Assembly (NCBI GenBank): GCA_963706575.1
Contig: CAVPNL010000004.1
Span: 1-64,000, forward strand
Reading direction: 5' to 3'
From: an uncultured delta proteobacterium
GTDB lineage: Bacteria; Desulfobacterota; Desulfobacteria; Desulfobacterales; JAHEIW01
DNA: 64,000 nucleotides
The translations under genes were made by a program, and so were the position numbers. The notes below the pieces were generated by a model. It ran no database searches. It saw nothing but the letters and a program-made list of their open reading frames with translations, and had not been told where the DNA came from. Every line of letters starts with the position of its first letter. The stretch's first letter is position 1. Below, piece after piece: positions 30,130 to 52,506 of this stretch.

Positions 30130-31128
30130 CTAGGTTTTGAGAAACTTTTGAGTTAAATTCTTCCAGCCCAGATCCGGCAGATTCCCGTAAATGTCATCAG
30201 CCAGATAGCCGCCATCGGCCGCCAGGGGGCCGGCGACTTCCTCGATCATCGTTTCCAGATGGCTGACTTCCGTATTGATCCAGCTCAGGCTGTCTTGATC
30301 CACCATCAAGCTTTTCATGGTGCCTTTAACATCCGGCGTGCGGACCATAAAGAGCCACCCGTCACCGTATGGTTCACCGTTGGCCAGCTTCGGATTTTCC
30401 CTGACTGTTGAATTGACTTCCATGATGACACCATCAACCGGCGAAAGTACGTCGGCCAGGTTATCTTTACGCTTCAGCCCCCAGCCCGCTTTGTTCTGGT
30501 CCAGTTCTTTACCGATCAACGGCAAATCGAGGGCATCGGCTTCTCCCAGCACTTTCAGCGCAAAGTCATCCAATCCCACCCGGATATAACCGCCGCTTTC
30601 GATTCTGGCCCAGGCGTGTCCATTATGGAAATAGTATCCCATGGGCACATCGAAACCTTTAACCTGCAGCATTTCAGCAGGAAAAGCTTTGGTTTTGGTG
30701 GTCCAGACATCTTCAAAATACTGATCAAAGTCACATTTGCCGCATTCATAGTCATAGGCGCACATTCGTTTTTCAATCCGCGCGGTAAGGCTGTGGCGGC
30801 AGACCCGATCCAGATCCGGCCGTCTCTTCATCGCTTCCTGCCAGCTGATCTGTTTGCCTTTGGCGACTTTCTGATCCATGGCATGATCATATTTACAACT
30901 GATGCAATCATAAAAATTGTCACAACTTTTAAATTTTACGACACCCGCTTGCATCCAAAGACAGGGAGTTGTTGCTTTGGCTTTCTTGTCCGGTTTAACC
31001 AGCCACGTCTGACCGCCGAGAACAGATTCGATCCCCTGCTGCGCTTTGCCGTCACCCGCTTTGCCTTTTTGGTAAGTCGATCCAAATCCCACCTGACTCC
31101 GCTGTGCCTTTTTCTTCTTTTCAGCCAT
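30130..31128 (-). CDS. GcvH-like protein with two N-terminal Cys-rich repeats (paralog)
   Basis: CLWMQAGVV, CRHSL..C..DYEC..CDFD; HAWA, VGLDDFA, SPVDG, EPYGDGW; AAAGGAG RBS before ATG 31128. Confidence 0.85.
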   Translation of the reverse strand: MAEKKKKAQRSQVGFGSTYQKGKAGDGKAQQGIESVLGGQTWLVKPDKKAKATTPCLWMQAGVVKFKSCDNFYDCISCKYDHAMDQKVAKGKQISWQEAMKRRPDLDRVCRHSLTARIEKRMCAYDYECGKCDFDQYFEDVWTTKTKAFPAEMLQVKGFDVPMGYYFHNGHAWARIESGGYIRVGLDDFALKVLGEADALDLPLIGKELDQNKAGWGLKRKDNLADVLSPVDGVIMEVNSTVRENPKLANGEPYGDGWLFMVRTPDVKGTMKSLMVDQDSLSWINTEVSHLETMIEEVAGPLAADGGYLADDIYGNLPDLGWKNLTQKFLKT

Positions 31129-31178
31129 TTCTCTTACTCCTTTTCTATGATTTATTTCATTTTTGATCCCCTTATAGA

Positions 31179-31193
31179 GCAATCCATGTGCCA
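31179..31193 (-). promoter_or_regulatory. Sigma-54 (-24/-12) promoter
   Basis: Minus strand TGGCAC-ATGGA-TTGC, exact consensus spacing, about 50 nt upstream of ATG 31128. Confidence 0.8.
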
Positions 31194-31531
31194 AAGGGGC
31201 ACACCCCTCCCATGTTTCCCTCTAACATCATTAAATTATTAAATATTTTTCTATTGTGATTATAGATCGATACAAAAGTCCGACTCTGAATAATGTAGAA
31301 ATATCCTACATCCCGCAAATCAGACAAACCTATTTTTGCGCCAATTCCATTAAATATATATTATTTTCATATAGTTATAAACATGTTGAATTTTCCACCA
31401 TTGAATTTGGATATTCCAACAGTTGCTATCTTTTTTATTTCCTGATATGTGCCTGTGTCTTGCGGGAAGATAAAGTTGCAATCCAGTTTTACTGTTTTAT
31501 GATATTTGAAAACCCGGAAAGGAGAGAAAAA

Positions 31532-35792: not shown

Positions 35793-35857
35793 GTCATTCC
35801 CGCGCAGGCGGGAATCCAGGCGTCTTTGAGCTGGACTCCCGCCTGCGCAGGAGTGAC
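35793..35857. repeat. REP-like palindromic element (ATTCCC-N8-GGGAAT core)
   Basis: GTCATTCCCGCGCAGGCGGGAATCCAG...CTGGACTCCCGCCTGCGCAGGAGTGAC; related copy at 56777-56832. Confidence 0.85.
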
Positions 35858-35909
35858 AATCATTTTGTAAATTATTTGCGGGACACGACACTAGCGAAAG
35901 GACCCCCAT

Positions 35910-36173
35910 ATGACGACATTAAATGAAGGTGACATTCTGACAAAGACTGTCAGATATAATCTTATTCGCAACGAAAGATTAATTTATATTGATGTACACG
36001 AAACAAAGGCTGGAAAGCTGGCTGGAAAATTTGTGGCCGTGCCCAATCTGATAAATATCGTTGCCAGGCAGGAATTCCAGGGCATCGGTGATACGGAGAC
36101 CGCAGCGCTGGAAAACTGCTTGCAGAAAATAAAGGATTTTGAAATCGAAGACCTTTTCCCCAAAAATGAATGA
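35910..36173 (+). CDS. Hypothetical protein
   Basis: 87 aa, AAAGGA RBS, fills the intergenic space. Confidence 0.65.
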   Translation: MTTLNEGDILTKTVRYNLIRNERLIYIDVHETKAGKLAGKFVAVPNLINIVARQEFQGIGDTETAALENCLQKIKDFEIEDLFPKNE

Positions 36174-36605
36174 TTAAGTTATTATTTTGGTAATCTTGGG
36201 CTGGTAGGCATTCTTTTTGGCCATTTTATTGGCACGGGCTTTGATGATAAACAACGCGGAGAAAAAAAAGGCAAATCCCAAAAGGACGGACAACGCAGAG
36301 GGACTAAATGCTATGAAGGGGGCCAGCACCTGTCCGAGTACAGCGCCAGCGATCATCAGGATAATTGGAAATACGTAGATCAAAAAGGTGGCTTTTAACA
36401 GTGAGGCGGTCTCAAAGCTCAAAACGATCCGATCCCCGACGCCGGCACCGGCTGAATTTATGGCCTTAACCTCCATATCCTGGCCGCCTCCTGTGGTGTG
36501 ACACGACCCCCTTGCGGTGCAGCCTTCACATGCGCTGCTCCGAACCGTTTTTACCCAGGCGGTCTCAAAATCGGTTCGCAGAACGACCCCTTGTTCAGTA
36601 GCCAA
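36174..36605 (-). CDS. rseC: RseC/MucC (SoxR-reducing system) family protein
   Basis: ATEQGVV, RSSACEGC..RGSC, GAGVGD.I, Y.FP, two TM; TTG start assumed. Confidence 0.85.
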   Translation of the reverse strand: MATEQGVVLRTDFETAWVKTVRSSACEGCTARGSCHTTGGGQDMEVKAINSAGAGVGDRIVLSFETASLLKATFLIYVFPIILMIAGAVLGQVLAPFIAFSPSALSVLLGFAFFFSALFIIKARANKMAKKNAYQPKITKIIT

Positions 36606-36654
36606 TGGCAACCCCGTAAATGAATGGGTTCTTTTGTTTAGAAGCGGATGAAAG

Positions 36655-38763
36655 TTATCCGGAGGCTTCAGTCGATTCTTCCTTCTCATCAGACACTGCG
36701 GTTGCGGTGTGCTCATAGCAGATCAAGCCGCATTGCAGGCACCTTGAGGCTTCTTGCTGCGCCATATCTGCTGAGAAGCCCCTTTCGATCTCACCGCATA
36801 TCGCCAGCTCTTTGCCGCTGCAAATCGGCATGATCTGTCGCTGACTCGCTTGAACCTTTTCCACATGATAGACATTTTGCAGGACCGATTGCGGTGTGAT
36901 CACATGCTCCGCCAAATTAGGCGACAGCCCATGCATCACCTGATGAATAGATGCGGCGGCCCTTCGGCCGGCACCGATTGCTTTGATGGCTGCGCTGTAA
37001 TCCGCCAGCACATCGCCTTCGGCAAACAATCCCCGCTCATCTTTGAAGGCCGTTTGTTTATAGGGTTGAATACCTTCCCAGCGCAGAGACAAATCCGGTG
37101 GTGTTTCCACTTCCGCCCCCTGGTCTTCTTCAGAACCAGCACCTTCCGGTTTTGGCCTGATAAAAACCAATTCTGGAAATCGGCCGGTGGCAAACACCAG
37201 TGTCTGGACAGGAAGGACTGTCCTTTCATCGGTATCGGTTTCAATATATTCCACCTGCTCGAGCCGATCGGCCTCTCCGAAAAGGCGGTTTATGGCTGCA
37301 TTATAAATCACATTCACGCCGGCCAGACCGCGTTTCTGCACCTCATCATCCGAAACAGGACTGTTTTCCCAGCTCTGGCGAAACAAAACAGTAATCGTCT
37401 TGGCTCCCCGCTCTTTGAGAATTTCAGCCGCGTCAAGGGCCAGCTTGCCCCCGCCGGCAATCACAGCATCGGACTCAATCGATAGGGTCTTCGCCTGCCG
37501 GGTACCGAATCGAATGAGATCCACCAGCATATAGGTCCCCGGAATCGGTGATTCAATATCAGCTTTCGCCCCGCGTGCCAAACGGCTGTCCCAGCCTCCG
37601 GAAGCTAAAAAAACCGCATCAAATCCTTCCTGAATCAATGATTTTATGGAAAACTCCCTGCCGAGCGCCTTTTGAGTTTCGATTTTAACCCCCATTTCAA
37701 TGATACCTTCAATATCCCAATCCAGTATCTCCTCGGGCAGCCTATCCTTTGAAATGGCGCTCCGGAGCAATCCACCCAGCTTGGAGGTGGCTTCAAATAC
37801 GGTGGTAGCGTGTCCCAGGCGGGCTGCAAAAAAGGCGGTCGACAAACCTTGCACGCCGCCGCCGACAACTGCGATCCTGCGGTCGGTATCCGGAGCCTTA
37901 TAGGGTAGAATGCGGTTGCCGCTTTCTTTTTCGTAATCAGCGGCGTAGCGTTTTAAAAAATTTATGGCAACCGGCTCATCAATATAATTTCGTCGGCACT
38001 CCAGTTCACAGGGTCGCGGGCAAATCCGGCCGATCACCGCCGGGAAGGGATTGCGTTCCTTGATGACCTGAACGGCGCGATGATTGTTTCCCAGTGAAAT
38101 TTGACGAATGTATTCCCGAATATTAATCCCGGCCGGGCACCCCCGCTGACAGGGGGTCGTGCATTCTTCATTGGTGTACTCCCGGATAATTCTTCGGGTA
38201 ATCGATGACAGGTTGATAATGTGCTTCGGGCACACCCGTTCGCAGGTTCCGCAGCCGGTACATTTATTTTCGCTTACCACCGGCAAACCCTCGGGCCCCA
38301 TGGAAATCGCATCAAACGGACAGGCTTTGGCGCATGTTCCCAGACCCAGGCATCCGATGGTGCAGACTTTCATACCGCCACCCAGCAGCGCCACCGCCCG
38401 GCAGTCATCTAAACCATTATACACATACTTGGTATCCGCTTTGTGGACGCCAAAAAAACAGCCCGGCAAGGCGATGTCCGGTTCAACCGCTTCAATTTTA
38501 ACGCCCATGATGCCGGCAATGGCTTCGGCGACTTCCGACCCGGCGGCCACACATGAGTTGGCTGCCGAAAGACCGGCCACAACGGCTTCGGCATTGGCGC
38601 TGCAACCCGGCAGCCCGCAACCGCCTCAGTTGGCGCCCGGCAATTCTTCCTCAATAGCAATGATCTTAGGATCAACATATACGTAAAAAACTTTGGAGGC
38701 GATGGCCAAAATGATACTGATCGCCAATCCCATGCCGCCCATTAAAATAATTGCTTCAGTCAT
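36655..38763 (-). CDS. rnfB: RnfB-like membrane-anchored polyferredoxin fused to a GltD/NfnB-like flavoprotein, selenocysteine-containing (Sec46), 702 aa
   Basis: ATG 38763: TM helix, DPKI...LPGAN-TGA(38626-38628)-GGCGLPGC in frame; TGA at the first Cys of the RnfB NCxxCGxxGC motif; hairpin GCTGC-CGGGTT-GCAGC follows; CLGLGTCAKACP, CTGCGTC; then PCQRGCPAG, GRICPRPCE, GGGVQGL, AIGAGRRAA, EASRCLQCG. Confidence 0.88.
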
Positions 38764-38823
38764 TAGAACCCCTTGGGAGAGTAAATTTAAAGTGAGCTAA
38801 AATGCTTATAGTTGATTTGTTTA

Positions 38824-38902
38824 TTCACCCCAGAGCACACAGAGAAAAAATTAACTTAGATTTTGTGCTCTAAAATTAAATCTCTGTGGTCTCTGTGGTA
38901 AA
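38824..38902. repeat. Inverted 9-mer tandem repeat element (CACAGAG family)
   Basis: cccagagcacacagag ... tctctgtggtctctgtggt. Confidence 0.7.
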
Positions 38903-38912
38903 ACAAATCGAT

Positions 38913-40700
38913 TTAAAATATAGCGTCGAACTTACACTTATCAAAACAGGTCATGCATTTAATGCATTTTTCCTTATCAATAACGGCAATTTCTTTCTTT
39001 TTCCAGATGATGGCATCCACCGGGCAGCTTCGGAAGCAAAGCCCGCATTTGGTGCAGCTTTCCGGCTCAACTTCAAATTTTAACAGCTCGATGCACCGTT
39101 TGGCCGGACATCGTTTCTCATGGACATGCGCCTCATATTCATCCCTGAAATACCGTAAGGTTGAAAGAACCGGATTGGGCCCGGTCTGACCCAGGCCGCA
39201 AAGCGCTGCCTCTTTAATCGTGTCTGAAAGTTCGAAGAGCGTTTCAATATCTTCAGGTCTTCCCCGACCCTCACAGATTTTTTCCAGCAGTTCTAAAAGG
39301 CGCCGCGTCCCCTCCCGGCAGGGTGTGCATTTACCGCAGGATTCGTCCTGGACAAAATCCATAAAAAATCGGGCCATATCGACCATGCAGGTATTATCGT
39401 CCATAACGATTGCGCCGCCGGAACCCATAATGGCACCGACTTTGGCAATTTCCTCATAGTCAATGGGGATATCCAGATGTTCTTCGGGCACGCAACCGCC
39501 CGAAGGCCCACCAAGCTGAACTGCTTTAAACTTTCTCTTTCCCGGGACTCCCCCGCCGATATCATAAATCATCCTTCTCAGGGTGGTTCCCATCGGCACT
39601 TCAACCAACCCGATGTTGTTCACATCTCCGGAAAGCGCAAACACTTTAGTCCCTTTGCTGCTTTCGGTACCGATGCTGGCATACCATTCCCCGCCGTTCA
39701 TGATAATCTGCGCAATATTGGATAGGGTTTCGACATTATTTAAAATCGTCGGCTTTTCCCATAGCCCTTTATGGGCCGGAAACGGCGGCCGCGGCCGCGG
39801 CATGCCGCGTTTGCCCTCAATCGATCGCATCAAGGCGGTCTCTTCACCGCAAACGAACGCACCGGCACCCTGATAAATATCAATGTCGAAGTCGAAGCCG
39901 GTTCCCAGGATATCGGTTCCCAGCAATCCGTAATCGCGGGCCTGTTTGATGGCAATTCCCAATCTTCTGATGGCCAGCGGATATTCTGTTCGCGCGTAAA
40001 TGTACCCCTGATGGGCATTAATTGCACGCGCTGCAATCAGCATGCCTTCCAAAATAGCATGCGGGTCGGATTCCAGTAGGCTTCGATCCATGAAAGCACC
40101 CGGATCACCTTCATCCGCATTGCACAACACATACTTAACCTCACTGGGGCTTTTGCTGGCAAACTCCCATTTCAGCCCGGTGGGAAAGCCCGCCCCGCCG
40201 CGCCCCCTTAAACCCGATGTTTTTACCTCGCCGATAATCTGCTCCGGGCTCATCTCCTGCAAGGCTTTGGCGGCTCCGAAATAACCGTCTCTGGCGATGT
40301 ACTCATCGATGACCTCCGGATCGATGGCACCTTTATTGCGCATCGCCCAAAACATCTGATGCTTGAAAAACGGAATTTCGTTCATACCGGGAATGGTTTC
40401 TTCAGAGGCCGGTTCGACATAAAATAGTTTTTTTACCGGACGGCCTTTGAGAAAATGCTCTTCGACCAGGTGCGGAACGTGTTTAGCCTTCAGCTTTTGG
40501 TAAAAGATCCCTTCAGGCTGAACCAGCATAACCGGCCCGACCGCGCAAAAACCGTTACAGCCGGTCTCTACGATCTTAATTTCATCCGCAAGCCCCTGGC
40601 GCTCCAGCTCTTTTTGAAGTGCTTTCCGAAGATGACCACTCTCATATGCCTGACAGCCGGTACCGCCACACAACATCAACTGGGTTCTTACCTTATTCAT
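38913..40700 (-). CDS. NuoF/HydB-like NADH-binding flavoprotein subunit
   Basis: N-terminal CGGTGC...GCNGFC; GRGGAGFPTGLKW, NADEGDPGA, GAFVCGEETAL, ESCGKCTPCREG, CGLGQ; C-terminal 2x[4Fe-4S]. Confidence 0.95.
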   Translation of the reverse strand: MNKVRTQLMLCGGTGCQAYESGHLRKALQKELERQGLADEIKIVETGCNGFCAVGPVMLVQPEGIFYQKLKAKHVPHLVEEHFLKGRPVKKLFYVEPASEETIPGMNEIPFFKHQMFWAMRNKGAIDPEVIDEYIARDGYFGAAKALQEMSPEQIIGEVKTSGLRGRGGAGFPTGLKWEFASKSPSEVKYVLCNADEGDPGAFMDRSLLESDPHAILEGMLIAARAINAHQGYIYARTEYPLAIRRLGIAIKQARDYGLLGTDILGTGFDFDIDIYQGAGAFVCGEETALMRSIEGKRGMPRPRPPFPAHKGLWEKPTILNNVETLSNIAQIIMNGGEWYASIGTESSKGTKVFALSGDVNNIGLVEVPMGTTLRRMIYDIGGGVPGKRKFKAVQLGGPSGGCVPEEHLDIPIDYEEIAKVGAIMGSGGAIVMDDNTCMVDMARFFMDFVQDESCGKCTPCREGTRRLLELLEKICEGRGRPEDIETLFELSDTIKEAALCGLGQTGPNPVLSTLRYFRDEYEAHVHEKRCPAKRCIELLKFEVEPESCTKCGLCFRSCPVDAIIWKKKEIAVIDKEKCIKCMTCFDKCKFDAIF

Positions 40701-40760
40701 CTAGACTCCTGCATGTGATGATTGACTATTTTCGATTGTCGCTCTTTACCTTATTAGCAA

Positions 40761-41114
40761 TTACCATGAGCCGTCCAGCCCGCGAAGCCCATTGACATAA
40801 AGTCGGCCGCTGGCAACAAACAGGGAGTATGCAGTCAGCAGACAGGGCATCTGATAGGATTTGGCCAGTTCGAGGACGGGCGGATCGGGTCTTTTACCCC
40901 TGACAAAAACAACGGCCGTTACCTCGGCAAGTTTGGCAGTCCGCAAAACATGCTCGGTCGTCAGACCGGTGAGCAAGACTGCGTCTTTGGCGACAGCCGA
41001 TAAGACATCTGCCATCAAATCCGCCCCTCCGGCCCCCACGACAGCGCGATCCAGCTGATCTTCACCCGTCAAAATGGTGGCATCTAATATGTTTTGAATC
41101 TCATATAGCTTCAT
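40761..41114 (-). CDS. DRTGG domain protein
   Basis: ADLMADVL, LLTGL, FVRGK. Confidence 0.85.
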   Translation of the reverse strand: MKLYEIQNILDATILTGEDQLDRAVVGAGGADLMADVLSAVAKDAVLLTGLTTEHVLRTAKLAEVTAVVFVRGKRPDPPVLELAKSYQMPCLLTAYSLFVASGRLYVNGLRGLDGSW

Positions 41115-41131
41115 GTTGAATAAGGCTCTCG

Positions 41132-41626
41132 TTATTCATACTTATCAAGCATTTCAATGACTTTGTCGGCTTTGACATCCCCGTAAGTATCCTGATCCAC
41201 CACCACAACCGGTGCCAGGCCGCAAGCTCCCAGACATCGGACCGCTTCCAGCGTAAAACGCCGATCTTCGGTCGTGTCGCCTTCTGCGATCCGGTATTGG
41301 TTGCCGATACGACTTATGACTTCTTTGATGCCTTTCACATAACAGGCGGTGCCCATGCAGGCCTTGATCTGGTGCCTGCCTTTGGGCGCCAGCGCAAAAA
41401 GCGAGTAAAAGGAAGCCACCCCGAAAACTTCACTGCGCGAAAGATTGAGACCGTCGCTGATATAATCGATAAGCTCAACCGGCAGCCAGCCGACGACATC
41501 CTGGCATTCACGCAAAACACCTATGATCGAACCGGGGATTTCTTTGTTATCACCAATAATTTTCTCAATCTTAGGCCACATTTCATCTGTAATTTCAGGA
41601 TGTTCAGGACGGGCGTCAGGTGTCAT
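41132..41626 (-). CDS. NuoE/HydC-like [2Fe-2S] subunit
   Basis: GVASFY, CMGTACYVKG, RCLGACGLAP. Confidence 0.95.
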   Translation of the reverse strand: MTPDARPEHPEITDEMWPKIEKIIGDNKEIPGSIIGVLRECQDVVGWLPVELIDYISDGLNLSRSEVFGVASFYSLFALAPKGRHQIKACMGTACYVKGIKEVISRIGNQYRIAEGDTTEDRRFTLEAVRCLGACGLAPVVVVDQDTYGDVKADKVIEMLDKYE

Positions 41627-41860
41627 TTGCAGATCTCCCTCGTTTGCACACGTTTACGACAGATCCGATTGAGCCGGATTGTAAACGATCATCAACAGGC
41701 GTCATCAATTACCCAAAAGAATCACGGGCGGGGTCAGGTGTTTAAGGGAGTGTGTATGCCACAGTGTAATAAAAAAGTCAACGAGAACATATTGTTTCCA
41801 CACTTGATATCTGTTGGCTTGACGAAGACAATTTGCTGCACTAAAATGGCGTTTTCTCTA

Positions 41861-42067
41861 ACCTAATTTGAGCGATTGTCGAGGTTGCCGCAGCTACAAG
41901 GAAGATGTCGTTCCGCTATAGTTGACTATGCAAAAAGGCGGACGGCATCTGACGCCGTAGATGCGGTAAGATCGGCAATCCCGAAGGGTTTCAAATTTAA
42001 ATCGATATGATTCCTTAATAATAAGATATTTCACCTATTTTTTAAGTTTGAAACGATCAATTTAGGT
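41861..42067. mobile_element. MITE-like element, about 207 bp
   Basis: Imperfect TIRs ACCTAATTTGAGCGATT / AAACGATCAATTTAGGT; first 24 nt match 8815-8838 at 22/24. Confidence 0.55.
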
Positions 42068-42090
42068 CCTAAGTACCTTAAGAGGGCAGC

Positions 42091-42930
42091 ATGCAAAACT
42101 TGACGCAACGACTGGCAGAAACGGTCGATTTTATTAAAGGCCGGATAAAGGATATGCCCTATATCGGTCTGCTAACCGGCACCGGCCTGGGTGAAAGTGC
42201 CGAATCGATAACGGTCGAGACAAGCATCAATTATCAGGATATTCCTCATTTTCCGATATCAACGGTTCAAACCCATATTGGCCGCATGCTCAGTGGCTAC
42301 ATGAACGGCTGCCCGGTCATTGCCATGCAGGGCCGATTTCATTTATATGAAGGGTATCATCCCCTCGAAGTTACTTTTCCCATCAGGGTAATGCAGCAGC
42401 TCGGCGTAAAAATTCTGATCCTTTCAAATGCCGCCGGCGGCCTGAATCCTGAATTTAATCCGGGCGATATCATGCTGATAGCCGATCATATTAATCTCAC
42501 CGGAACAAACCCGCTGATCGGCCCCAATATAGACAGCTGGGGCAAACGATTCCCCGACATGACCCGGGCCTATGATGAAACGCTAATCGATGCGGCCGAG
42601 CGCATCGCCAAAACAGCCGGAGCACGTCTGCAAAAAGGAATATACGTAGGGCTCACAGGGCCCTCGCTTGAAACGCCGTCGGAAGTAAAATTTTTACAAA
42701 CCATTGGCGCCGAAGCCGTCGGGTTTTCAACCGTGCAGGAAGTTATTGCCGCCGTCCACAGCGGTATGCGGGTGCTGGGATTATCAATTATTACCAACGT
42801 CCATAATCCGGACGATCCCGTTCCGGCTACTGTTGAAGAAATCATTGAAGTGGCCAAAGGGGCGACTCCCCTGCTGGAAACGATTATAAAAGGGATCACT
42901 GAAAAAATATATGAAACCGAAATCCGCTGA
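42091..42930 (+). CDS. punA: Purine nucleoside phosphorylase (trimeric type)
   Basis: GTGLG, QGRFHLYEG, NAAGG, DHIN, GPSLET..E. Confidence 0.9.
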   Translation: MQNLTQRLAETVDFIKGRIKDMPYIGLLTGTGLGESAESITVETSINYQDIPHFPISTVQTHIGRMLSGYMNGCPVIAMQGRFHLYEGYHPLEVTFPIRVMQQLGVKILILSNAAGGLNPEFNPGDIMLIADHINLTGTNPLIGPNIDSWGKRFPDMTRAYDETLIDAAERIAKTAGARLQKGIYVGLTGPSLETPSEVKFLQTIGAEAVGFSTVQEVIAAVHSGMRVLGLSIITNVHNPDDPVPATVEEIIEVAKGATPLLETIIKGITEKIYETEIR

Positions 42931-44228
42931 TACCCTGGTGACGAACGGAACCGTACTGACCCTATGTGCAGGCGATACCGAAATTATCAATGGCGCAGTT
43001 GCCATCGACAAAGATACCATCACGGCCGTCGGGTCGGCCGATGAATTTAACGACTGGCGCATATCACAAGTTATCGATGCTCACGGCGGAATCATCATGC
43101 CGGGATTGATTAATTCCCACACCCACGCCGCCATGACCTGTTTCAGAGGGCTGGCCGATGACCTTCCTTTGATGACCTGGCTCAATGATCATATTTTCCC
43201 GGCCGAGGCAAAACTGGATGATCAAAAGGTCTATTCAGGCACATTGCTGGCCTGCGCTGAAATGATCATGTCCGGCACCACCTGTTTCTGCGACATGTAT
43301 CTGTTTGAGGATGCGGTCGCCCGGGCCGCCAAAGACGCCGGCATGCGCGCTGTTGTCGGAGAAGTTCTCTATGATTTTGATTCACCCAATTATGGGCCCA
43401 TCGAAAACGGAATTGGATATACCCAAAAACTGATCGATTCCTGGCAGGAAGATCCCCTGGTCAGCATAGCCGTCGAGCCGCATTCAGCCTATCTTTGTGC
43501 GCCGGAATTGCTGCAAAAAGCCTTTAAGCTGGCGCAATCCCATAATCTAACGTTTGTGATCCATCTGGCCGAATCCAAAAGTGAGGTTGAACAAATACAG
43601 CAACGCTTTGAGCGCACACCGGTCGAATACCTTGCTGAACTCGGAGTTCTAGCCCCCAACGTACTTGCCTGCCATTGTGTAGAGCTCACTGAAAAGGACA
43701 TCGCCTTGCTGCAGCGCTTTGATGTAAAAGTCGCTCATAATGCCGAAAGCAATATGAAACTGGCATCCGGGGTGGCACCGATCCCCCGGTTAATTGATGA
43801 AGGCATCTGTGTGGGGATGGGAACGGATGGATGTGCCAGTAACAACGATCTGGATCTTTTTCAGGAAATGGATAGCGTGGCCAAACTTCACAAGGCCAAA
43901 AGTCTGGATCCAACGGTAATGGACGCCCGGACCGTATTAAAAATGGCCACCATCAGCGGCGCAAGGGCTCTGGGCCTCGATCCGGTTCATCGGCTCCCTC
44001 GAGAAAGGCAAAAAAGCAGATCTAATCATTGTCGACACAAACAAGCCTCATCTGACGCCCATGTACAATCCGGTCTCTCACCTGGTGTACGCGGCGATAG
44101 GAAGCGACGTCACCACCTCAATCATTAATGGCCATGTCGTTATGGAGGATGGCACGATTAAAACGATGGACATCAAAGCGGTCATGGACGATGTCAACAT
44201 GATAGCAAAAGAAATAGCAACCGGATAA
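42911..44228 (+). CDS. mtaD: MTA/SAH deaminase-family amidohydrolase, one apparent +1 frameshift near 43985
   Basis: [38 protein letters not shown]; the other frame continues [13 protein letters not shown]...TAA 44228. Confidence 0.8.
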
Positions 44229-44301
44229 AGAATTGCCTTGAGGATTTTTCACATAGCTGCTTGATGGCCATTTGGAGCAATGGAGTGTTGGAGTAAATTC
44301 A

Positions 44302-44391
44302 ATTGCGGATTTTAGATTGCGGATTGCAGATTGAAATATTAGACATGTCGTACATTTAAAATCCGCAATCCGCAATCCAAAATCTAAAATC
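44302..44391. repeat. Inverted pair of 7-mer tandem repeats
   Basis: attgcgg attttag attgcgg attgcag ... aaaatcc gcaatcc gcaatcc aaaatct aaaatc. Confidence 0.85.
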
Positions 44392-44402
44392 AGCGTGATC
44401 CC

Positions 44403-45726
44403 ATGCCTTACGATCTAGTCGTCCATAATGGAACCATTGTGACCGTCAATGATTCATTTGAAATTATCCCAAATGGTCTGATTTGCGTAAAGGCAGGCAA
44501 ACTCGAGCGTGTCGAAAACCTGGCGGACGATCAATCGCTTCCGGCCGCAGATGAAATCATCGATGCCGGGGGCGGTCTCGTTATGCCGGGTCTGATCAAC
44601 ACCCACACCCATCTTCCCATGACCCTGTTTCGCGGCCTGGCGGATGATCTGCCGCTGAATATCTGGTTAAACCAACACATTTTTCCCGCAGAGAGTGCCC
44701 ACATCAACCCCGAGCGTGTTCGCTGGGCGATCTTTATTAGCCTGCGCTGAAATGTTACTTTGCGGAGCGACCACTTGCTGTGACGGATATTTTTATGAAA
44801 ACGAGGTGGCTGAGGCCGTGCAAACCAGCGGCATGCGCGCCGTATTGGCCCAGGGGGTGATTGACTTTCCGGCACCGGGCGTGCCGGATCCGAAGAGATA
44901 ATCTTAAGATACCCGCTGCCTTTATTGCCAGATGGCAAAACCGGACGTCTCTGATCAGCCCATCCGTATTTTGCCATTCGGCCTATACCTGCAGCGCGGA
45001 AACCTTGAAAAAAGCCAAGGCGCTTTGCGTTGAAAAAGGCTTGCTCTTTCAAATTCACGTGGCGGAAACCCAATATGAGTGCCGGCAAATCCAGGATGAA
45101 CATCAGTGCACCCCGATCCAGTATCTCGATCGTTTGGAAATACTGGATGAAAATACCTTGCTGATACATTGTGTCTGGTTAACCGATGAAGATATCGCAA
45201 TTATCGCTGCGCGCAAAGCCGGCATTTCCCACAACCCGGAGAGCAATGCCAAATTGGCTTCGGGGATCGCACCGATACCGGAAATTTTGAGGTTCGGCAT
45301 ACCGGTCGGGCTCGGCACAGATGGATGTGCCAGCAACAACAACCTGGATCTGTTTCATGAAATGGACATGGCGGCCAAACTTCACAAGGCGGCCTCATTT
45401 GATCCAACCACAATGGATGCGAGAACCGTGGTTGAGATGGCAACCATCGGCGGCGCCAAAGCCATCGGCCTTGGCACCCATACTCGGCTCTCTTGAAGTC
45501 GGCAAACAGGCGGACGTGATCATCATCGATACCGCAAGATCGCATCTGTCACCGATTTACCACCCGGAGTCTCATATCGTCTATGCGGCCAAGAGCTCGG
45601 ACGTGCGCGACGTCGTGGTGGACGGTCGTGTCCGGGTTCGAAGATCGAAAGGTGCTCAGCCTGGATGTTGAAGAGATTATGGCCAAGGTCCGGGAGATCG
45701 CAAATCATATCAAAAAAGACCGGTGA
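44403..45726 (+). CDS. Second MTA/SAH deaminase-family amidohydrolase, about four apparent frameshifts
   Basis: HTHLPM, RGLADD, HSAY, HVAET, SNAKLASG, GTDG, GSLEVGKQAD spread over consecutive frames (breaks near 44730, 44897, 45483, 45640). Confidence 0.75.
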
Positions 45727-45763
45727 TACCTGGCCAATAGATTTAAGGTTAATTAATGTATCA

Positions 45764-45840
45764 TTCACCACAGAGTTCACAGAGCACACAGAGAAAATAC
45801 TCAACATTGGTTTCTATCATTTTATTATAAATCTCTGTCG
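45764..45840. repeat. CACAGAG-family 9-mer repeat element
   Basis: ttcaccacagagttcacagagcacacagag ... atctctgtcg. Confidence 0.65.
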
Positions 45841-45873
45841 TAAAACAAACTCATATAAAAATGGACCTTAACA

Positions 45874-47587
45874 ATGAATCTGAATGAAATCATTAAAGGC
45901 GGCACACGGCGAAAAACCGGTTGATCTGCTTTTAACAAACGCGCAGATCATCAATGTATTTGCGGGCGAGGTCGTAGCGGATTCAATTGCCATCAGTGAT
46001 GGGATGATCGTCGGCTTCGGACCATACGAGGCCCAAAATGTCGTGGATCTAAACGGTCGATATGTCGCTCCCGGTTTTATTGATGGACATGTCCATATTG
46101 AAAGCTCAATGGCTTGCATTTCCGAATTCGCCCGGGCAGTCGTCGTACATGGTACCACGACCGTAGCGGCCGATCCCCATGAAATCGCTAACGTGCTGGG
46201 ATCAGCGGGAATCGAATATATGCTGCAGTCGGCAGAACAACAACCCATGAATATCTATTTTACCCTGCCGTCGTGCGTACCGGCTACCGATATGGAAACC
46301 GCCGGTGCGCGCCTAACCGCTGAAGACCTGCGGCCATTTTTAAATAAAGAAAGAATTATCGCACTGGCTGAGATGATGAATTTTCCTGGCGTTATCTATC
46401 GGGATCCGGATGTTTTGGCCAAAATACTCGCTGCCCGGCAGCAAAAAAAGCCGATCGACGGTCACGCGCCCGGGCTCACAGGACAGGCGCTTTATGCTTA
46501 TATCTCAGCCGGCATTCAAAGTGATCATGAATGCACCACCGCGCAGGAAGCCAGAGAAAAGCTCATGGCCGGTATGTACATCATGGTCCGACAGGGAACC
46601 TGTGCCAAAAATTTGCAGGCTCTGTTGCCGGCCGTGAGCGAAAAAACAGCCCGGCGGATGATGTGGTGCACTGATGATCGGCACCCCCATGATCTGATCG
46701 CAGAGGGTCATATTGATTCTATCGTGTATGAAGCCATTCAATCCGGTCTGGACCCGATTTTAGCGATCCAAATGGCGACCCTGAATCCGGCAGAATATTT
46801 CAAATTAGACCACCTGGGCGCTCTTGCGCCCGGCAAACAGGCCGATCTGGTTGTATTTTCAAATTTAAAAAAACCGATCATTGAAAAAGTATATTGCCGG
46901 GGAATCTTAACTGCCGAAAACGGAAAAATATCACCGAATATTCAGGTTCCTCCAGCGGCCACCGTCCCTCCATCGATGCATGTTAATCTTCAGAATATCG
47001 ATTTCGCAATATCTGCTGATAAAAAACAAGTTCGAGTAATTGAAATTGTGCCGGAACAGGTGATTACCCATCAGCTTATCGAAGAGATAACGGTTAAAAA
47101 TAGTCAAGCGGTAAGCGATCCTTCAAAGGATATGCTTAAAATAGCGGTTATTGAACGTCACAAAGGCACCGGCAATATCGGCATGGGCTTTGTTAAAGGC
47201 TTCGGCTTAAAACACGGCGCCCTGGCTTCCAGTGTTGCCCATGATTCTCATAATATTATTGTGGCCGGCACCACAGATGAGGACATGCGAGCCGCAATGG
47301 AAGCGGTGGTGAAAATGGGAGGCGGCCTGGCTGCCGTATCTGATACCCATATTCTGGCTGAACTGGCGTTGCCGGTTGCGGGACTGATGTCTTTGGAACC
47401 GGTCCAGAGTATCCGCGATCAACTGGACAGCCTCATTGGAGTTGCACATGGCATGGGGACCACATTAAAGGATCCGTTCATGACCCTTTCCTTTTTGGCC
47501 CTGCCCGTGATACCGGAGTTAAAGCTGACCGATATCGGGCTGGTCGATGTGAATAAGTTTGAAGTGGTGCCATTGTTTGTTGAATAG
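45874..47587 (+). CDS. ade: Adenine deaminase
   Basis: PGFIDGHVHIESS, DPHEIANV, EMMN, DGHAP, DHE, TDD, VAHDSHN; the true start is probably ATG 45874 (MNLNEIIK) with one extra base near 45898. Confidence 0.92.
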
Positions 47588-47894: not shown

Positions 47895-48248
47895 ATGAAG
47901 CTATCAGAAATAGTTGAGACCCTGGATGCGACCCTTTTGATCGGCGAGGATAAACTGAATCAAGATATCACCAAATGTGGTGCCAGCGACTTGATGAGCG
48001 ATGTTCTGGCTGCAATTTGTGAAGGCTGTATTTTATTGACCGGCCTGACAACAGTCCAGGTGATACGGACCGCCAGCGTCGCCGGGGTCGGGGCGGTGGC
48101 ATTTGTCAGGGGTAAAAAGCCTCCCCCGGAAGTGGTCGAAATGGCCGGCATTCAGGGGCTGCCGTTAATATCGAGCCCGTATTCCATGTTTGTCTCCTGC
48201 GGCAGGCTGCACGCCTGTAATCTTACGGGGCTTAACGGGCAACGATAA
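47895..48248 (+). CDS. DRTGG domain protein
   Basis: SDLMSDVL, LLTGL, FVRGK; paralog of 40761-41114. Confidence 0.85.
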   Translation: MKLSEIVETLDATLLIGEDKLNQDITKCGASDLMSDVLAAICEGCILLTGLTTVQVIRTASVAGVGAVAFVRGKKPPPEVVEMAGIQGLPLISSPYSMFVSCGRLHACNLTGLNGQR

Positions 48249-48305
48249 CCGATCGCAAATTGCCTCATATCAACGATATAGCGCTACAGTGATTTTCCAG
48301 CGACG

Positions 48306-48746
48306 ATGGTTAAATTCAAAAAAAGCTTTCATATAAAAGGTAGAGATTTTATCCGCGCCGGAGAAGCCGCGATCAACGTGCAAAATCTTCTCAAGTCGAT
48401 GGATTTTGATTCCCGCCTGATTCGGCGCGTTGCCATCTGCGGCTATGAAAGCGAAATGAATGTCGTCATGCACGCCGGCGATGGCTCCTTGAGCCTTGAG
48501 ATCGACACGGACAGGCTGACTCTAGAAATTTCCGATGATGGCCCCGGTATCGAAGATATTGACCTGGCGATGCAGGCCGGTTACTCGACAGCCAACGACG
48601 ATCACCGTGAAATGGGTTTCGGAGCCGGCATGGGCCTGCCGAATATGAAAAAAAATTCAGATCAGATTCACATTGAGTCAAACAATGGCCAGGGAACTGT
48701 GGTTCGAATGATTTTTTTCCTGCCGGAGGGAGGGAAAACAGATTGA
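48306..48746 (+). CDS. Anti-sigma-factor-type Ser/Thr kinase (HATPase_c, RsbW/RsbT-like)
   Basis: YESEMNVVMHA, DDGPGI, GYSTA, GFGAGMGLPN. Confidence 0.88.
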   Translation: MVKFKKSFHIKGRDFIRAGEAAINVQNLLKSMDFDSRLIRRVAICGYESEMNVVMHAGDGSLSLEIDTDRLTLEISDDGPGIEDIDLAMQAGYSTANDDHREMGFGAGMGLPNMKKNSDQIHIESNNGQGTVVRMIFFLPEGGKTD

Positions 48747-50053
48747 GCCCAAAACTAACATCGACTCACTATGTCCGTTTTGACCAAGACCTCTGCGCCG
48801 GCTGTGGCTCGTGTCTGCGGGTCTGCCCCACCAAAGCCATCCGCGTTAAAAAGAAAAAGGCCATCCGCATCGTAGAACAATGCATCGGCTGCGGCGAATG
48901 CATTCGCATCTGCCGCGAAGGCGCCGTCAGTGCGGCCAGTGAAAGCCCCAAAGTGCTGGGAGAAAATCATGTGGCTATCGCCCTGGTTTCACCGGTGCTC
49001 TATGCGCAGTTTCCCGGGGTGATGCCCAAAGACGTGCTCCTGGGACTGCGCCATATGGGCTTTGAGCACACCATCGACATGTCTTATTTTCTTGAAATAT
49101 TCCAATTTGCGACCGAAGAATTCATCAGCCGCAATCGAAAATCCCAAACGGCCCCCTGGCCGCTGATTTCTCCGGTATGCCCGGTGGTGGTGCGGCTCAT
49201 CGCTTTTCGATTTCCCAACCTTTTACCCAATGTGTTGCCGGTGTTGAGGCCGGTGGCCCTAATGGCGCGGGAAGTCAAATCGCGCCTGATACCCGAGTAC
49301 AGCAAAAAAGGAAAAGGCGTTGTCCTGTATTATATCAATCCCTGTCCCACTAAAAAAGAACCGGCACCCTTGCCCCGCCACAAACGAACGGGTCCCGCTG
49401 AAGTCGCTCTGGGAATCAACGATATATATCCCGAACTGGTCAAACATGTGGACCAGATAGAAGCCGCGGACGGTATTCCTTTTTATCAAACCCGTTTTGA
49501 ATATGAAACATGCGCAACCGGCAACGCGTCCATGTGGGGGATGTCCGGTGGAGAAATTGCCGACATGGATATTGAGAAATCTCTGGCGGTTTCCGGCATG
49601 GAGGAAACCATCAGCTATCTGGAAAAAATTGAATTGGGGTTGTTTCAGGATATTGAGTATATCGAGTTTAGGACCTGCCGCGAAGGCTGCCTGGGCGGCG
49701 TGCTGACCGCCATAGATAAATACCTTGCCAAGGGCGCCGTCCAAAAGATGATCAAACGGTTTGGGCTGGGAAGACGCTTGCACCGCGAAAATATTATGCG
49801 GATGTACGATAAAGGAGAATTCCAAAGCGAAAAAAAACCAGCCAAATTGACCAGTCTGTTTGGCACCAATAAAGAAGCCCTGTCGATCGATAGTATGCAG
49901 AAAATTGAGAAAGTTATGGAATTAATCCAGGGCACAGACTGCTCAGCATGTGGCGCACCGGACTGCCGGACTTTTGCTGAAGATGTGGTGCGGGGAAATG
50001 CCGCCCTGAAGGAATGTCTTTTTATCGGCGCGCGCGCAAAAAAAAAGGATTGA
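48743..50053 (+). CDS. Group D-type [FeFe]-hydrogenase-like Fe-S protein (putative sensor)
   Basis: N-terminal 2x[4Fe-4S]; H-domain motifs ISPVCP (L1), NPCPTK (L2), EFRTCREGCLGG (L3); C-terminal DCSACGAPDC. Confidence 0.8.
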   Translation: MSPKLTSTHYVRFDQDLCAGCGSCLRVCPTKAIRVKKKKAIRIVEQCIGCGECIRICREGAVSAASESPKVLGENHVAIALVSPVLYAQFPGVMPKDVLLGLRHMGFEHTIDMSYFLEIFQFATEEFISRNRKSQTAPWPLISPVCPVVVRLIAFRFPNLLPNVLPVLRPVALMAREVKSRLIPEYSKKGKGVVLYYINPCPTKKEPAPLPRHKRTGPAEVALGINDIYPELVKHVDQIEAADGIPFYQTRFEYETCATGNASMWGMSGGEIADMDIEKSLAVSGMEETISYLEKIELGLFQDIEYIEFRTCREGCLGGVLTAIDKYLAKGAVQKMIKRFGLGRRLHRENIMRMYDKGEFQSEKKPAKLTSLFGTNKEALSIDSMQKIEKVMELIQGTDCSACGAPDCRTFAEDVVRGNAALKECLFIGARAKKKD

Positions 50054-50105
50054 GCCGCTGATTGACAATCATACGGCGAAAACAGACGGGAAAGGATTTT
50101 GACGG

Positions 50106-50456
50106 ATGTTGGTAAAAGATCTGGTGGAAAAATTTGACCTATCAATCGTTGCGGGCAAAAATGGGCTTGATCGTGAGGTCCTCGACGGTTACTGCGGCGA
50201 TTTGTTGAGCGAAATAATGGGCAACGCTCCGGCAGGCTGTGTCTGGTTGACGGTTCAGGGGCATCAAAATATTGTCGCGGTGGCCGTGCTGCGTGAAATG
50301 GCCGCCATCCTTATCACCGGTGGCCAAAAGCCGGATGAAGAAACCATCCGGAAGGCGGATCAGGAGGGCATTCCCATTTTATTATGGCCCGAATCATCCT
50401 ATCGCTTGGCCGGCCGCATTTTTAGTGCCGGCGTCGGGAATCTAAGCACCGAATAA
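50106..50456 (+). CDS. DRTGG domain protein
   Basis: GYCGDLLS, WLTVQ.HQNIVAVA. Confidence 0.85.
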   Translation: MLVKDLVEKFDLSIVAGKNGLDREVLDGYCGDLLSEIMGNAPAGCVWLTVQGHQNIVAVAVLREMAAILITGGQKPDEETIRKADQEGIPILLWPESSYRLAGRIFSAGVGNLSTE

Positions 50457-50504
50457 TTTACGGATTCAGCATTTAACAGCACGAATGTTAGTACACCTTA
50501 CAAT

Positions 50505-50578
50505 TTCACCACAAAGTTCACGAAGGGCACAAAGAAAGAATTTACTATTATTAAAAAATCTTTGTGTACTTCGTGGTT
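50505..50578. repeat. Inverted 9-mer repeat element (CACAAAG family)
   Basis: caccacaaagttcacgaagggcacaaag ... ctttgtgtacttcgtggt. Confidence 0.8.
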
Positions 50579-50609
50579 GGGTAACCGCTCCATTTTAGGG
50601 AACCAGCCG

Positions 50610-51356
50610 TTGTTAAAAAAATACAAAGCCGACCTCCACATTCACTCCTGCCTTTCACCATGCAGCGATTGGGATATGAGCCCCAAAAAAATTATCGAGA
50701 AAAGCCTTGAACGACAGCTCGATTTAATCGCCATCTGTGACCACAACACCGCCGAAAACGCGGCGGCAACTTCACGGGAGGGAACCCGGCAGGGCATTAC
50801 CGTTTTGCCAGGGATGGAAATCTGTTCCAGAGAAGAAGTGCATCTGGTAACCCTTTTTAAAAAAATTGAAGACGCTCTGAAAATGCAGGAATTTATTTAC
50901 GCCCATCTGCCGGGGGAAAATCAACCGGAAGTATTCGGGCATCAGGTCGTCGCCGATGAGCACGACCAGGTCCTGGGAGAAAACGCCCGCCTGCTGATCG
51001 GTGCCACCCGGCTCAGTTTACATGATATTGTTGCTAAGGCTCATCATCTCGGCGCCATCTGCATCAGTTCCCATGTTGACCGTCCGTCGTACAGTCTGAT
51101 CGGCCAGCTTGGATTCATCCCCGAGGATTTACATTTGGACGCCGTGGAGGTTTCTTATCGGATACCCCTTGATAAAGCCCTGACCGAGGTGCCGGGCATA
51201 AAGGATTATCCCTGTGTGACCGCTTCAGATGCACATTTTTTGAGAGATATCGGCAAGGTGTGGACGGAATTCATCTTAGCCGCCCCCACACTGGAAGAAA
51301 TCCAAATGGCACTGGCCGGAACCGAAGGGCGCAGGATTGTCAACAAGAGCGAATGA
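50610..51356 (+). CDS. PHP domain phosphoesterase
   Basis: DLHIHSCLSPC, DHN, PGME, EEVH, SDAH; TTG start assumed. Confidence 0.9.
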   Translation: MLKKYKADLHIHSCLSPCSDWDMSPKKIIEKSLERQLDLIAICDHNTAENAAATSREGTRQGITVLPGMEICSREEVHLVTLFKKIEDALKMQEFIYAHLPGENQPEVFGHQVVADEHDQVLGENARLLIGATRLSLHDIVAKAHHLGAICISSHVDRPSYSLIGQLGFIPEDLHLDAVEVSYRIPLDKALTEVPGIKDYPCVTASDAHFLRDIGKVWTEFILAAPTLEEIQMALAGTEGRRIVNKSE

Positions 51357-51384
51357 TATCCAGTCTTGTGTAGATTGAGACTTA

Positions 51385-51477
51385 ACCACAAAGTTCACAA
51401 AGGACACAAAGGAAATAATTTATAAAAAATTTAATTCATCTGTTTTCACCTTTGTGCTCTTTGTGTCTTTGTGGTGA
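51385..51477. repeat. Inverted 9-mer repeat element (CACAAAG family)
   Basis: accacaaagttcacaaaggacacaaagg ... cctttgtgctctttgtgtctttgtggt. Confidence 0.85.
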
Positions 51478-51541
51478 GTAAAGTCTTCACAATCGATCTG
51501 AAAACAGCAGTTGTAGCACAGCGGAAAGTCTTATGGTATAA

Positions 51542-52099
51542 ATGCGAGAGTTATCTTTACATATTTTAGATGTCGCTGAAAACGGGATTACCGCCGGAGG
51601 GGATTGCATCTGGATCGAGGTTAATGAGGAACGCAAAACGGATCAGTTAAAAATTGTGATTCGCGATAATGGCCGGGGGATGCCTGTCGAAAAACTGGAA
51701 AATATCGACGACCCTTTCATAACAACCCGAACCACACGCAGAGTCGGTCTGGGTCTCTCTCTTTTGGCGGCCGCTGCCGGACGGTGTGAAGGGACAATGC
51801 ATGTAGATAGCAAGCCCGGCAAAGGCACAGAAATAATAGCGACATTCCGTTTCAATCATATCGACCGTGCGCCTCTGGGCGATATGGCCGCGACGATTAC
51901 GACTTTAATCATGGGTAATCCAGGAATCGATTTTGTTTATTCACATCGCATCGATGGTAATGAGTATAGACTGGATACCAGGGAAATCCGGGCAGAGATG
52001 GAAGATCTTTCTCTGTCCGACCCGATAGTAATTCACCATTTGACCGAAACCATCCGTTCTGCACTCGAAAAGCTGTCATCAAATGAGAACGAATCTTGA
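51542..52099 (+). CDS. HATPase_c protein (hydrogenase-operon-associated kinase)
   Basis: MRELSLHILDVAENG, DNGRG, DPF.TTRTTRRVGLG, HIDR.PLGD. Confidence 0.88.
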   Translation: MRELSLHILDVAENGITAGGDCIWIEVNEERKTDQLKIVIRDNGRGMPVEKLENIDDPFITTRTTRRVGLGLSLLAAAAGRCEGTMHVDSKPGKGTEIIATFRFNHIDRAPLGDMAATITTLIMGNPGIDFVYSHRIDGNEYRLDTREIRAEMEDLSLSDPIVIHHLTETIRSALEKLSSNENES

Positions 52100-52137
52100 A
52101 CACTGAATAAAGGTCAAATCAATGGAGGAAAAACGAC

Positions 52138-52506
52138 ATGGCAAAGCTGACAATTGATGATCTAAAAAAGATTAAGGAAAAAACCGCCAAAGAAACCTCA
52201 CTGCGCGATGGCCCCGCAAGTATAAAGATCACGGTGCACATGGGCACCTGCGGAATAGCAGCCGGTGCCCGTGATGTCATGAGTGCGCTTATGGAAGAGA
52301 TGGCCGAGGCAGATCGACAGGATATCCGGGTCGTTGCTTCCGGCTGCATGGGGATGTGCAGTAGCGAGCCCAATGTCACCATTGAGGCCCAGGACAGCGA
52401 GCCCATTGTTTATCAGCTGATGGATTCCAACAAAATGCGCCAGGTTTTCAAGCGGCATGTCCTGCTGGGTGAGGTCCAAACCGATTTTGCGCTGGCTAAG
52501 ATGTAA
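52138..52506 (+). CDS. Thioredoxin-like [2Fe-2S] ferredoxin (HydD/HndB-like)
   Basis: MGTCGIAAGA, GCMGMCSSEP. Confidence 0.88.
   Translation: MAKLTIDDLKKIKEKTAKETSLRDGPASIKITVHMGTCGIAAGARDVMSALMEEMAEADRQDIRVVASGCMGMCSSEPNVTIEAQDSEPIVYQLMDSNKMRQVFKRHVLLGEVQTDFALAKM

Follow-up and report, generated by a model that had tools for sequence, protein, structure and literature searches.

Which enzyme does a bifurcating electron-transfer core complete when its own gene cluster holds no catalytic subunit, and what does an RnfB fusion do beside it? Both questions are raised by a run of minus-strand genes in a 64,000-nucleotide stretch of DNA from an uncultured member of the Desulfobacterales (assembly GCA_963706575.1, contig CAVPNL010000004.1, positions 1 to 64,000; hereafter the window). 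The run encodes HydC, a DRTGG-domain protein, HydB, a fusion of RnfB with a GltD-like flavoprotein that we call RnfB', and RseC. We favour, at about even confidence, a reading in which HydB and HydC (HydBC) would belong to a trans-encoded bifurcating formate dehydrogenase with a selenocysteine (Sec)-containing FdhA, and RnfB' would be an alternative, NADPH-blind B subunit of the Rnf2 complex. A preliminary description of this DNA had listed the run as nuoE-like, DRTGG, nuoF-like, RnfB-GltD fusion and rseC, and Pfam domains confirm it:

41132..41626, minus strand: hydC/bfuC, NuoE-like [2Fe-2S] thioredoxin subunit, 164 aa (PF01257, E 1e-45)
40761..41114, minus strand: DRTGG-domain protein, 117 aa (PF07085)
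38913..40700, minus strand: hydB/bfuB (nuoF-like), 595 aa, with B5, FMN/NAD, B1, B2, B3 and B4 sites
36655..38763, minus strand: rnfB' (RnfB-GltD fusion), 702 aa, with an in-frame TGA read as Sec46
36174..36605, minus strand: rseC, ~143 aa, three conserved Cys (PF04246, E 2e-34)

For rseC, homologues suggest a TTG start at 36605, not the longest open reading frame (ORF) start at 36716. As the preliminary description had noted, no hydA, fdhA, nuoG or rnfCDGEA gene was seen among the listed ORFs of window positions 28000-64000; a tblastn search of the whole genome (completeness 91.8%) places NuoG-type N-termini and an rnf operon on other contigs. Relatives were drawn from the Desulfobacterales, with a survey of 301 genomes of the order and 64 hydB neighbourhoods picked for long contigs. 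In these 64 loci, the gene directly after hydB is rnfB' in 48, fdhA in 5 and another gene in 11, and hydC lies directly upstream of hydB, or of a DRTGG-hydB pair, in most. Since rnfB' follows hydB so regularly, with rseC next in 44 of these 48 loci, the gene order is not chance, and the nuoE-nuoF-rnfB-rseC adjacency proposed from this single stretch proves to be conserved.

By Pfam, HydB comprises an N-terminal 2Fe-2S thioredoxin domain, Complex1_51K, SLBB and NADH_4Fe-4S domains and a C-terminal 2x[4Fe-4S] region, and its closest solved relative is A. mobile HydB (7t2r_B, E 7e-254). The ligands of the B2 cluster are given as C438, C476 or Thr, H525, C531 and C536 (PMC9304861). All five are in HydB, with numbering identical to 7t2r_B; the complete set C438, C476, H525, C531, C536 occurs in 59 of 64 HydB orthologues, the remaining 5 having Ser or Ala at position 476. 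Among the features that mark the Bfu family, HydB has FMN/NAD, SLBB, B1, C-terminal ferredoxin domains and B5 cysteines, and HydC is the BfuC [2Fe-2S] thioredoxin subunit; no BfuA with N-terminal [2Fe-2S]/[4Fe-4S] clusters is found in the gene cluster. Judged by these ligands and domains, HydB/HydC is a true bifurcating-type core, as the preliminary description had held.

A [FeFe]-hydrogenase partner for this core was rejected, there being no HydA or HydG above cut-off in the genome: the only PF02906 match is a protein at window 48743-50053, far under every [FeFe]-hydrogenase cut-off. NiFe large subunits are present, and no H-cluster-less HydA was seen beside them.

The missing third subunit is probably an orphan Sec-FdhA encoded in trans on another contig. 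This 922-aa protein (G000:C6:895507-898275, G000 being the source genome) has a Sec codon and BfuA-type N-terminal clusters, lies beside thrS with no nuoEF neighbour, and combines Fer2_4, NADH-G_4Fe-4S_3, Fer4_Nqo3 and molybdopterin domains. A related fdhA stands directly after hydB in 5 of the 64 loci and nearby in 4 more. HydB orthologues (at least 69% identity, leaving out six NuoF-GltD fusion rows and two 62-65% matches) occur in 130 of the 301 genomes, and FdhA is present in 119 of these 130. On this evidence, we consider it quite probable that HydB binds FdhA. Co-purification of NuoEF with a HydA, Fdh or NuoG subunit encoded elsewhere was the outcome that the preliminary description had set against its own proposal, and an FdhA in trans whose gene follows hydB in 5 of 64 loci is the genomic counterpart of that outcome.

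Two other candidates were set aside. The NuoG protein on contig C5 and the Fdh-like protein on C14 were dropped as HydBC partners because each has its own nuoEF. The C14 genes (L002:3748-11895; G000:C14:101747-109894) comprise the Fdh-like gene, nuoE, a 1043-aa NuoF-GltD fusion and metV-/metF-like genes, and form a separate module beside methylenetetrahydrofolate reductase. A 2Fe-2S protein on C13 sits in its own operon, beside a GltD-like gene. In two of the surveyed loci (L095 and L102), both from genomes without an RnfB' match, additional FdhA-N/GltD and FdhA-like genes come after hydC-hydB-fdhA and extend it to a larger array of Bfu/Nfn type.

The same FdhA has a candidate NADP-linked partner in an SfrB-like NADH_4Fe-4S + GltD protein (L162:5165-7198; G000:C6:685164-687197), which has the same NADH_4Fe-4S domain as HydB plus an intact NADPH domain. 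Among the 206 FdhA genomes, 8 have both HydB and the SfrB-like protein, 111 only HydB, 31 only the SfrB-like protein and 56 neither, five SfrB-like matches at 44-46% identity being left out of the count. Such near-exclusion is expected if both compete for one FdhA site, and we infer that both dock at the NuoF site of FdhA.

RnfB' runs from a hydrophobic N-terminal segment, predicted to anchor it in the membrane, through RnfB Fe-S and ferredoxin domains and GltD/NfnB-like clusters to an FAD domain and a degenerate NAD(P)H domain. A hydrophobic anchor, an RnfB Fe-S head and a GltD-like FAD domain in ~700 aa constitute the large-RnfB (Tol2 type) layout. The genome also has, on C18, a full Rnf2 operon that encodes a large RnfB of the Cys type, giving one rnfA/E pair versus two large RnfBs; the RnfB' gene lies outside that operon. 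In a phylogenetic tree, RnfB' forms a clade apart from the Rnf2-operon RnfB (RnfB2), with support 100. Three motifs of the NAD(P)H domain, GGGNxAxD, YRRxxxEMP and GEPDxSGRRxP, are found in 0 of 72 RnfB' sequences versus 30 of 30 RnfB2; the YRR survives in 1 RnfB' of 72 and 29 RnfB2 of 30, and identity across the domain averages 0.33 and 0.71, respectively. In an AlphaFold model, this domain of RnfB' is still folded (mean pLDDT 78.6), and the best matches of the model are NfnA and StnC. The RnfB head is the best-conserved part of the protein (0.76 identity), and the Fe-S ligands, the cluster Lys, most FAD motifs and the GltD-type clusters are invariant or nearly so.

The preliminary description had placed the fusion in the slot normally held by HydA or StnC, and had suggested that it serves as an Stn-like transhydrogenase subunit. 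The closest solved relatives of its flavoprotein part are in fact NfnA and StnC, with matches that span only the NfnL-like part of RnfB'. Pfam finds neither Fer2_4 nor NADH-G_4Fe-4S_3, the NuoG/BfuA N-terminal clusters, in RnfB'; NfnA hands electrons to B1 through its N-terminal clusters (PMC11829005). Because these docking clusters are absent and the three NAD(P)H motifs are lost in all 72 sequences, RnfB' is, on sequence grounds, neither StnC nor an NADP(H) subunit. Its persistence in 87 genomes that yielded no HydB orthologue also speaks against the proposed slot, as the degenerate NAD(P)H domain throughout the family does against the transhydrogenase role.

Near its start, RnfB' has two further features:

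38626..38628, minus strand: TGA in frame, likely Sec46, where the N-terminal cluster motif of RnfB has its first Cys
38590..38625, minus strand: SECIS-like stretch after the TGA, with an 11-nt word of fixed synonymous sites

The TGA is likely a selenocysteine codon. The motif is visible in 37 of 41 RnfB' loci, as TGA in 19 and Cys in 18, and tRNA-Sec and selB are present in the genome. All 20 distinct TGA variants, whose carriers are close kin, have the 11-nt word, as do 4 of the 41 Cys variants that encode identical amino acids; the folding energy of the candidate Sec insertion element (SECIS) is no better than that of shuffles. Sec in this RnfB motif is already catalogued (row NF005503, UxxC; PMC13188914), and the match of RnfB' to NF005503 falls below its cut-off because of the fusion. 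The catalogued proteins and RnfB' share Sec, likely in the case of RnfB', at the first Cys of the cluster motif, which here sits in a 702-aa fusion. Many public gene calls for RnfB' measure 632-641 aa, as expected from a start placed after the TGA; such truncated calls mislead, as do the automatic names 'glutamate synthase beta' and 'NADP-dependent'.

Across the order, RnfB' tracks FdhA. It was found in 200 of 301 genomes (best E <=1e-150), 186 with FdhA and 14 without; 20 genomes have FdhA alone and 81 neither, for a phi coefficient of 0.74, or 0.77 within the 236 genomes positive for acetyl-CoA synthase (ACS). The corresponding values are 0.21 for RnfB' versus ACS and 0.38 for RnfB' versus HydB. 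RnfB' occurs in 113 of the 130 HydB genomes, and several of the 17 HydB genomes without an RnfB' match have fdhA directly downstream. We inspected 20 rnfB' loci from genomes without a HydB match: DRTGG immediately precedes rnfB' in 14 and rseC follows it in 17; hydC and hydB are often cleanly gone, and one locus has a frameshifted hydB. On the RnfB' tree, hydB adjacency to rnfB' requires 14 changes, at least 5 of them forced. Among 40 loci from genomes lacking a HydB match, 7 have fdhA next to rnfB', in three different arrangements; this neighbourhood requires 4 changes on the tree, at least 3 of them forced.

All 25 FdhAs aligned from RnfB' genomes have a 24-residue insert next to the His/Cys cluster; all 5 FdhAs encoded after hydB in genomes without an RnfB' match lack it. 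Within genus g31, the insert motif is kept in all three genomes with RnfB' and replaced in all four without it. This pattern raises the prospect of a direct FdhA-RnfB' contact via the insert, to which we give somewhat less than even credence. A complex prediction of RnfB' with the N-terminal 245 residues of FdhA scored 0.00 and is counted neither way.

A second set of observations links RnfB' to Rnf2. In genomes with a single large-RnfB match, four of six Rnf2 operons have no rnfB on either side; of the remaining two, one shows the beginning of an rnfB where its contig ends, and the other is cut. RnfB' is the only large RnfB found in the four genomes whose Rnf2 operon is without rnfB. For Desulfotignum phosphitoxidans, cytochrome c and rnfCDGEA are listed without rnfB in PMC4046663. 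Together with the single rnfA/E pair on C18, the four rnfB-less operons make the link to an Rnf complex encoded elsewhere, raised in the preliminary description, a likely one, and RnfB' likely works with RnfA/E of Rnf2.

These observations suggest a model in which Sec-FdhA would oxidize formate and, where present, HydBC docked on FdhA would divide the electrons between NAD+ and ferredoxin, in the manner suggested for Type 1 Fdh-Bfu (PMC9304861). RnfB' would replace the NADPH-fed RnfB2 as the Rnf2 B subunit and would pass FdhA electrons, directly or through ferredoxin, along its cluster chain into RnfA/E. RseC may assist, like E. coli RseC, which interacts with the Rsx complex (PMC11729352). 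Formate oxidation would thereby be wired into the Rnf ion pump; the direction of flow and the pumping are predictions only. More tentatively, Rnf2 may be a modular ion pump with swappable heads, RnfB2 for NADPH and RnfB' docking Sec-FdhA directly, and HydBC on the other face of FdhA would complete a membrane-tethered Fdh-Bfu-Rnf supercomplex. Such a supercomplex, if real, would couple ion pumping to the final step in the oxidation of acetyl-CoA.

Several points weigh against this model. In the window, hydBC adjoins rnfB' and not fdhA, as it does in most loci (48 of 64, against 5 with fdhA), and the model leaves the conserved FAD site of RnfB' with no assigned substrate. Of the 206 FdhA genomes, 56 show no HydB and no SfrB-like protein, and the source genome has both, so that its FdhA has two candidate partners. 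The insert motif is kept in six FdhA genomes without an RnfB' match (G075, G157, G236, G266, G268 and G318; 76-95% complete, four in one family); of the other genomes without a match, one has a drifted motif, and G088 has an rnfB' cut by the contig end. The phi values are overstated because kin are not independent, and four of the seven fdhA-rnfB' neighbourhoods were picked from listed nearness, only L140, L146 and L161 being unselected. The HydB search scored 4 candidates per genome and missed the frameshifted copy in G301.

A rival reading keeps the HydBC and FdhA pair and casts RnfB' as a B subunit that accepts electrons from ferredoxin, has a merely vestigial flavoprotein part at its end, and is linked to formate via free ferredoxin only. 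The strong conservation of the RnfB head (0.76) beside a decayed NAD(P)H domain fits this arrangement, and hydB-rnfB' adjacency in 48 of 64 loci suits a ferredoxin producer beside its consumer. A generic ferredoxin entry should, however, also follow ACS and its partner carbon monoxide dehydrogenase (ACS/CODH), whereas phi is 0.21 there and 0.74 for FdhA. Moreover, RnfB' and FdhA occur together even in genomes without a HydB found, the FdhA insert is altered where RnfB' is lost, and the GltD-type clusters and FAD motifs are near-invariant; we therefore think this version rather unlikely. A different use of the adjacency, the docking version of the preliminary description, would make HydBC a BfuA-less module of the Type 4 Bfu kind proposed in PMC9304861, which would bind RnfB' directly and send NADH/ferredoxin electrons to Rnf2. 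The 48 of 64 linked loci and the 113 of 130 HydB genomes with RnfB' are in keeping with it, as is G053, whose Rnf2 operon lies one gene away from the hydBC-rnfB' cluster. It is nevertheless improbable, given that RnfB' is without the BfuA N-terminal clusters, that 87 genomes have RnfB' and no HydB match, often with hydC and hydB cleanly lost from the locus, and that 17 genomes have HydB and no RnfB' match, several with fdhA directly downstream.

The remaining readings fare worse. The C18 RnfC has 4Fe-4S Pfam matches only and no Complex1_51K domain, in line with what PMC5109826 states of Rnf2, and HydBC might supply this missing NADH site by docking at the RnfC end; homologues of the cNMP (cyclic nucleotide) and cNMP-[2Fe-2S] genes of the Rnf2 operon lie beside hydBC in seven loci (L057, L061, L062, L066, L070, L075 and L084). 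Yet operon RnfB is found in 44 of 61 genomes and HydB in only 130 of 301, and the near-exclusion of HydB and the SfrB-like protein points to FdhA, leaving RnfC-end docking very unlikely. An Stn-like NADH-dependent ferredoxin:NADP+ transhydrogenase with RnfB' as its NADP(H) subunit draws on the kinship of the flavoprotein part to NfnA and StnC. The motif counts (three motifs 0 of 72 versus 30 of 30; YRR 1 of 72 versus 29 of 30) and the absence of A1/A2 wiring clusters from RnfB' make it hardly credible. We grant just as little to a redox-sensing or cluster-maintenance branch of RnfB' and RseC, like the E. coli Rsx-RseC SoxR reducer, under DRTGG/kinase/PHP control: rseC and DRTGG are the most persistent rnfB' neighbours, and E. 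coli RseC does interact with Rsx (PMC11729352), but the tight FdhA link and the four Rnf2 genomes in which RnfB' is the only large RnfB found would go unexplained.

Beyond the five-gene run, the window holds a set of accessory genes identified by Pfam:

47895..52506, plus strand: divergent accessory operon

It encodes DRTGG, an RsbW-like kinase, a hydrogenase-like Fe-S protein, a second DRTGG (50106-50456), PHP, HATPase and a HydD-like [2Fe-2S] protein, and it abuts hydC in nine loci (L056, L057, L073-L076, L079, L095 and L102). A DRTGG/kinase/PHP cluster accompanies clostridial bifurcating hydrogenases; here the operon occurs though no [FeFe]-hydrogenase was found in the genome, and a literature search on the cluster returned nothing relevant. 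The DRTGG gene of the five-gene run (40761-41114) and the DRTGG, kinase and PHP genes of the operon (47895-52506) may have a regulatory role in the system.

The Rnf2 operon contains a cNMP-[2Fe-2S] thioredoxin fusion and a cNMP protein (L001:12292-13535; G000:C18:120291-121534), and the thioredoxin part of the fusion is 59% identical to the HydD-like protein of the window. Its rnfD (L001:15480-16500; G000:C18:123479-124500) ends early, at 240 aa, probably through a frameshift; several other genes of the assembly look split too, and the break may be a sequencing error.

A promoter and terminator scan of 35800-42200 came near shuffle level (10 versus 6.4 +/- 2.7 and 9 versus 7.4 +/- 2.9). The scan gave no terminator within the 149-nt gap between hydB and rnfB' (38764-38912); inside hydB, it gave two consensus promoter-like matches from 38944 and one terminator-like match at 39057-39043. 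RNA runs contain only small shares of the stretch, and a relative's contig from an RNA library spans the hydB-rnfB' gap, though it may derive from DNA and shows no transcript. A plasmid search found nothing.

Between hydC and the accessory operon (42091-47587, plus strand) lie genes for a purine nucleoside phosphorylase, two amidohydrolases, both apparently frameshifted, and an adenine deaminase; the phosphorylase gene remains divergent from the hydBC cluster across the order. On the other side, an 87-aa ORF without a Pfam match (35910-36173, plus strand) is, with clpS, conserved convergent to rseC in many close relatives. Further away, at 29092-31194 on the minus strand, two tandem genes fuse Cys-rich N-terminal repeats to a glycine-cleavage H domain (PF01597). 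Elsewhere in the genome, a bacterial-microcompartment-like cluster with shell proteins, an aldehyde dehydrogenase and a PduS-like gene (L003:1626-11947; G000:C1:385626-395946) was read from ORF starts only.

The Desulfobacteraceae are described as major complete oxidisers in marine sediments, and Rnf2 as a core, constitutive complex of theirs whose electron partners await experimental verification (PMC5109826, PMC11887813). The present locus suggests one specific answer, namely an additional B subunit, found in 200 of 301 genomes, that would be tied to a cytoplasmic formate dehydrogenase, with HydBC as an optional bifurcating arm in 130 of those 301. No publication on a second large RnfB that is NADPH-blind, or on its link to FdhA, turned up in a search that most subscription journals fall outside, and term searches for RnfB' gave nothing in PMC1976440, PMC5029168, PMC12013277, PMC2702500 or bioRxiv 2022.07.06.499078. 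The parts are already known, namely the Bfu core, bifurcating formate dehydrogenases, the Rnf2 large RnfB and Sec-RnfB; both the RnfB-flavoprotein architecture and Sec in RnfB have been published.

Comparison with these known systems shows where the present one departs from them. Type 1 Fdh-Bfu (PMC9304861) and the nuoEF-fdhF unit of Desulfotignum phosphitoxidans (PMC4046663) have in common with it a BfuB with all B2 ligands, a BfuC, and BfuA-type N-terminal clusters on FdhA; the fdhA considered here is in most cases unlinked, carries a 24-residue insert specific to the lineage and co-occurs with a paralogue of RnfB. StnABC of Sporomusa ovata (8oh5) and NfnABC (9bov, 9n5u) share the HydB/HydC core and an NfnL-like flavoprotein domain in the same circularly permuted form. 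The NADP domain of Stn is intact and inserted in the BfuA chain, whereas here it is degenerate and on a separate RnfB chain; at the sequence level, NfnA and StnC appear to carry their NADP domain at about the position of the short FdhA insert. In Seep-SRB1g, again among Desulfobacterota, a cytoplasmic formate dehydrogenase gene, fdhF2, lies beside an NfnB-like gene, 'nfnB', and the pair was read as an NADPH-recycling bifurcating enzyme (PMC10553843); this 'nfnB' may be RnfB' under another name, or the SfrB-like protein. Finally, the published Rnf2 is defined by NAD-binding sites on a ~700-aa RnfB and by the lack of an NADH site on RnfC (PMC5109826, PMC11887813), and its large RnfB, of the D. 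toluolica Tol2 type, shares with RnfB' the ~700-aa fusion of RnfB to a GltD-like FAD domain. RnfB' differs in being a second paralogue outside the operon, in a clade of its own, that has lost the NAD(P)H motifs, often has a likely Sec, and sits with rseC, DRTGG and hydBC.

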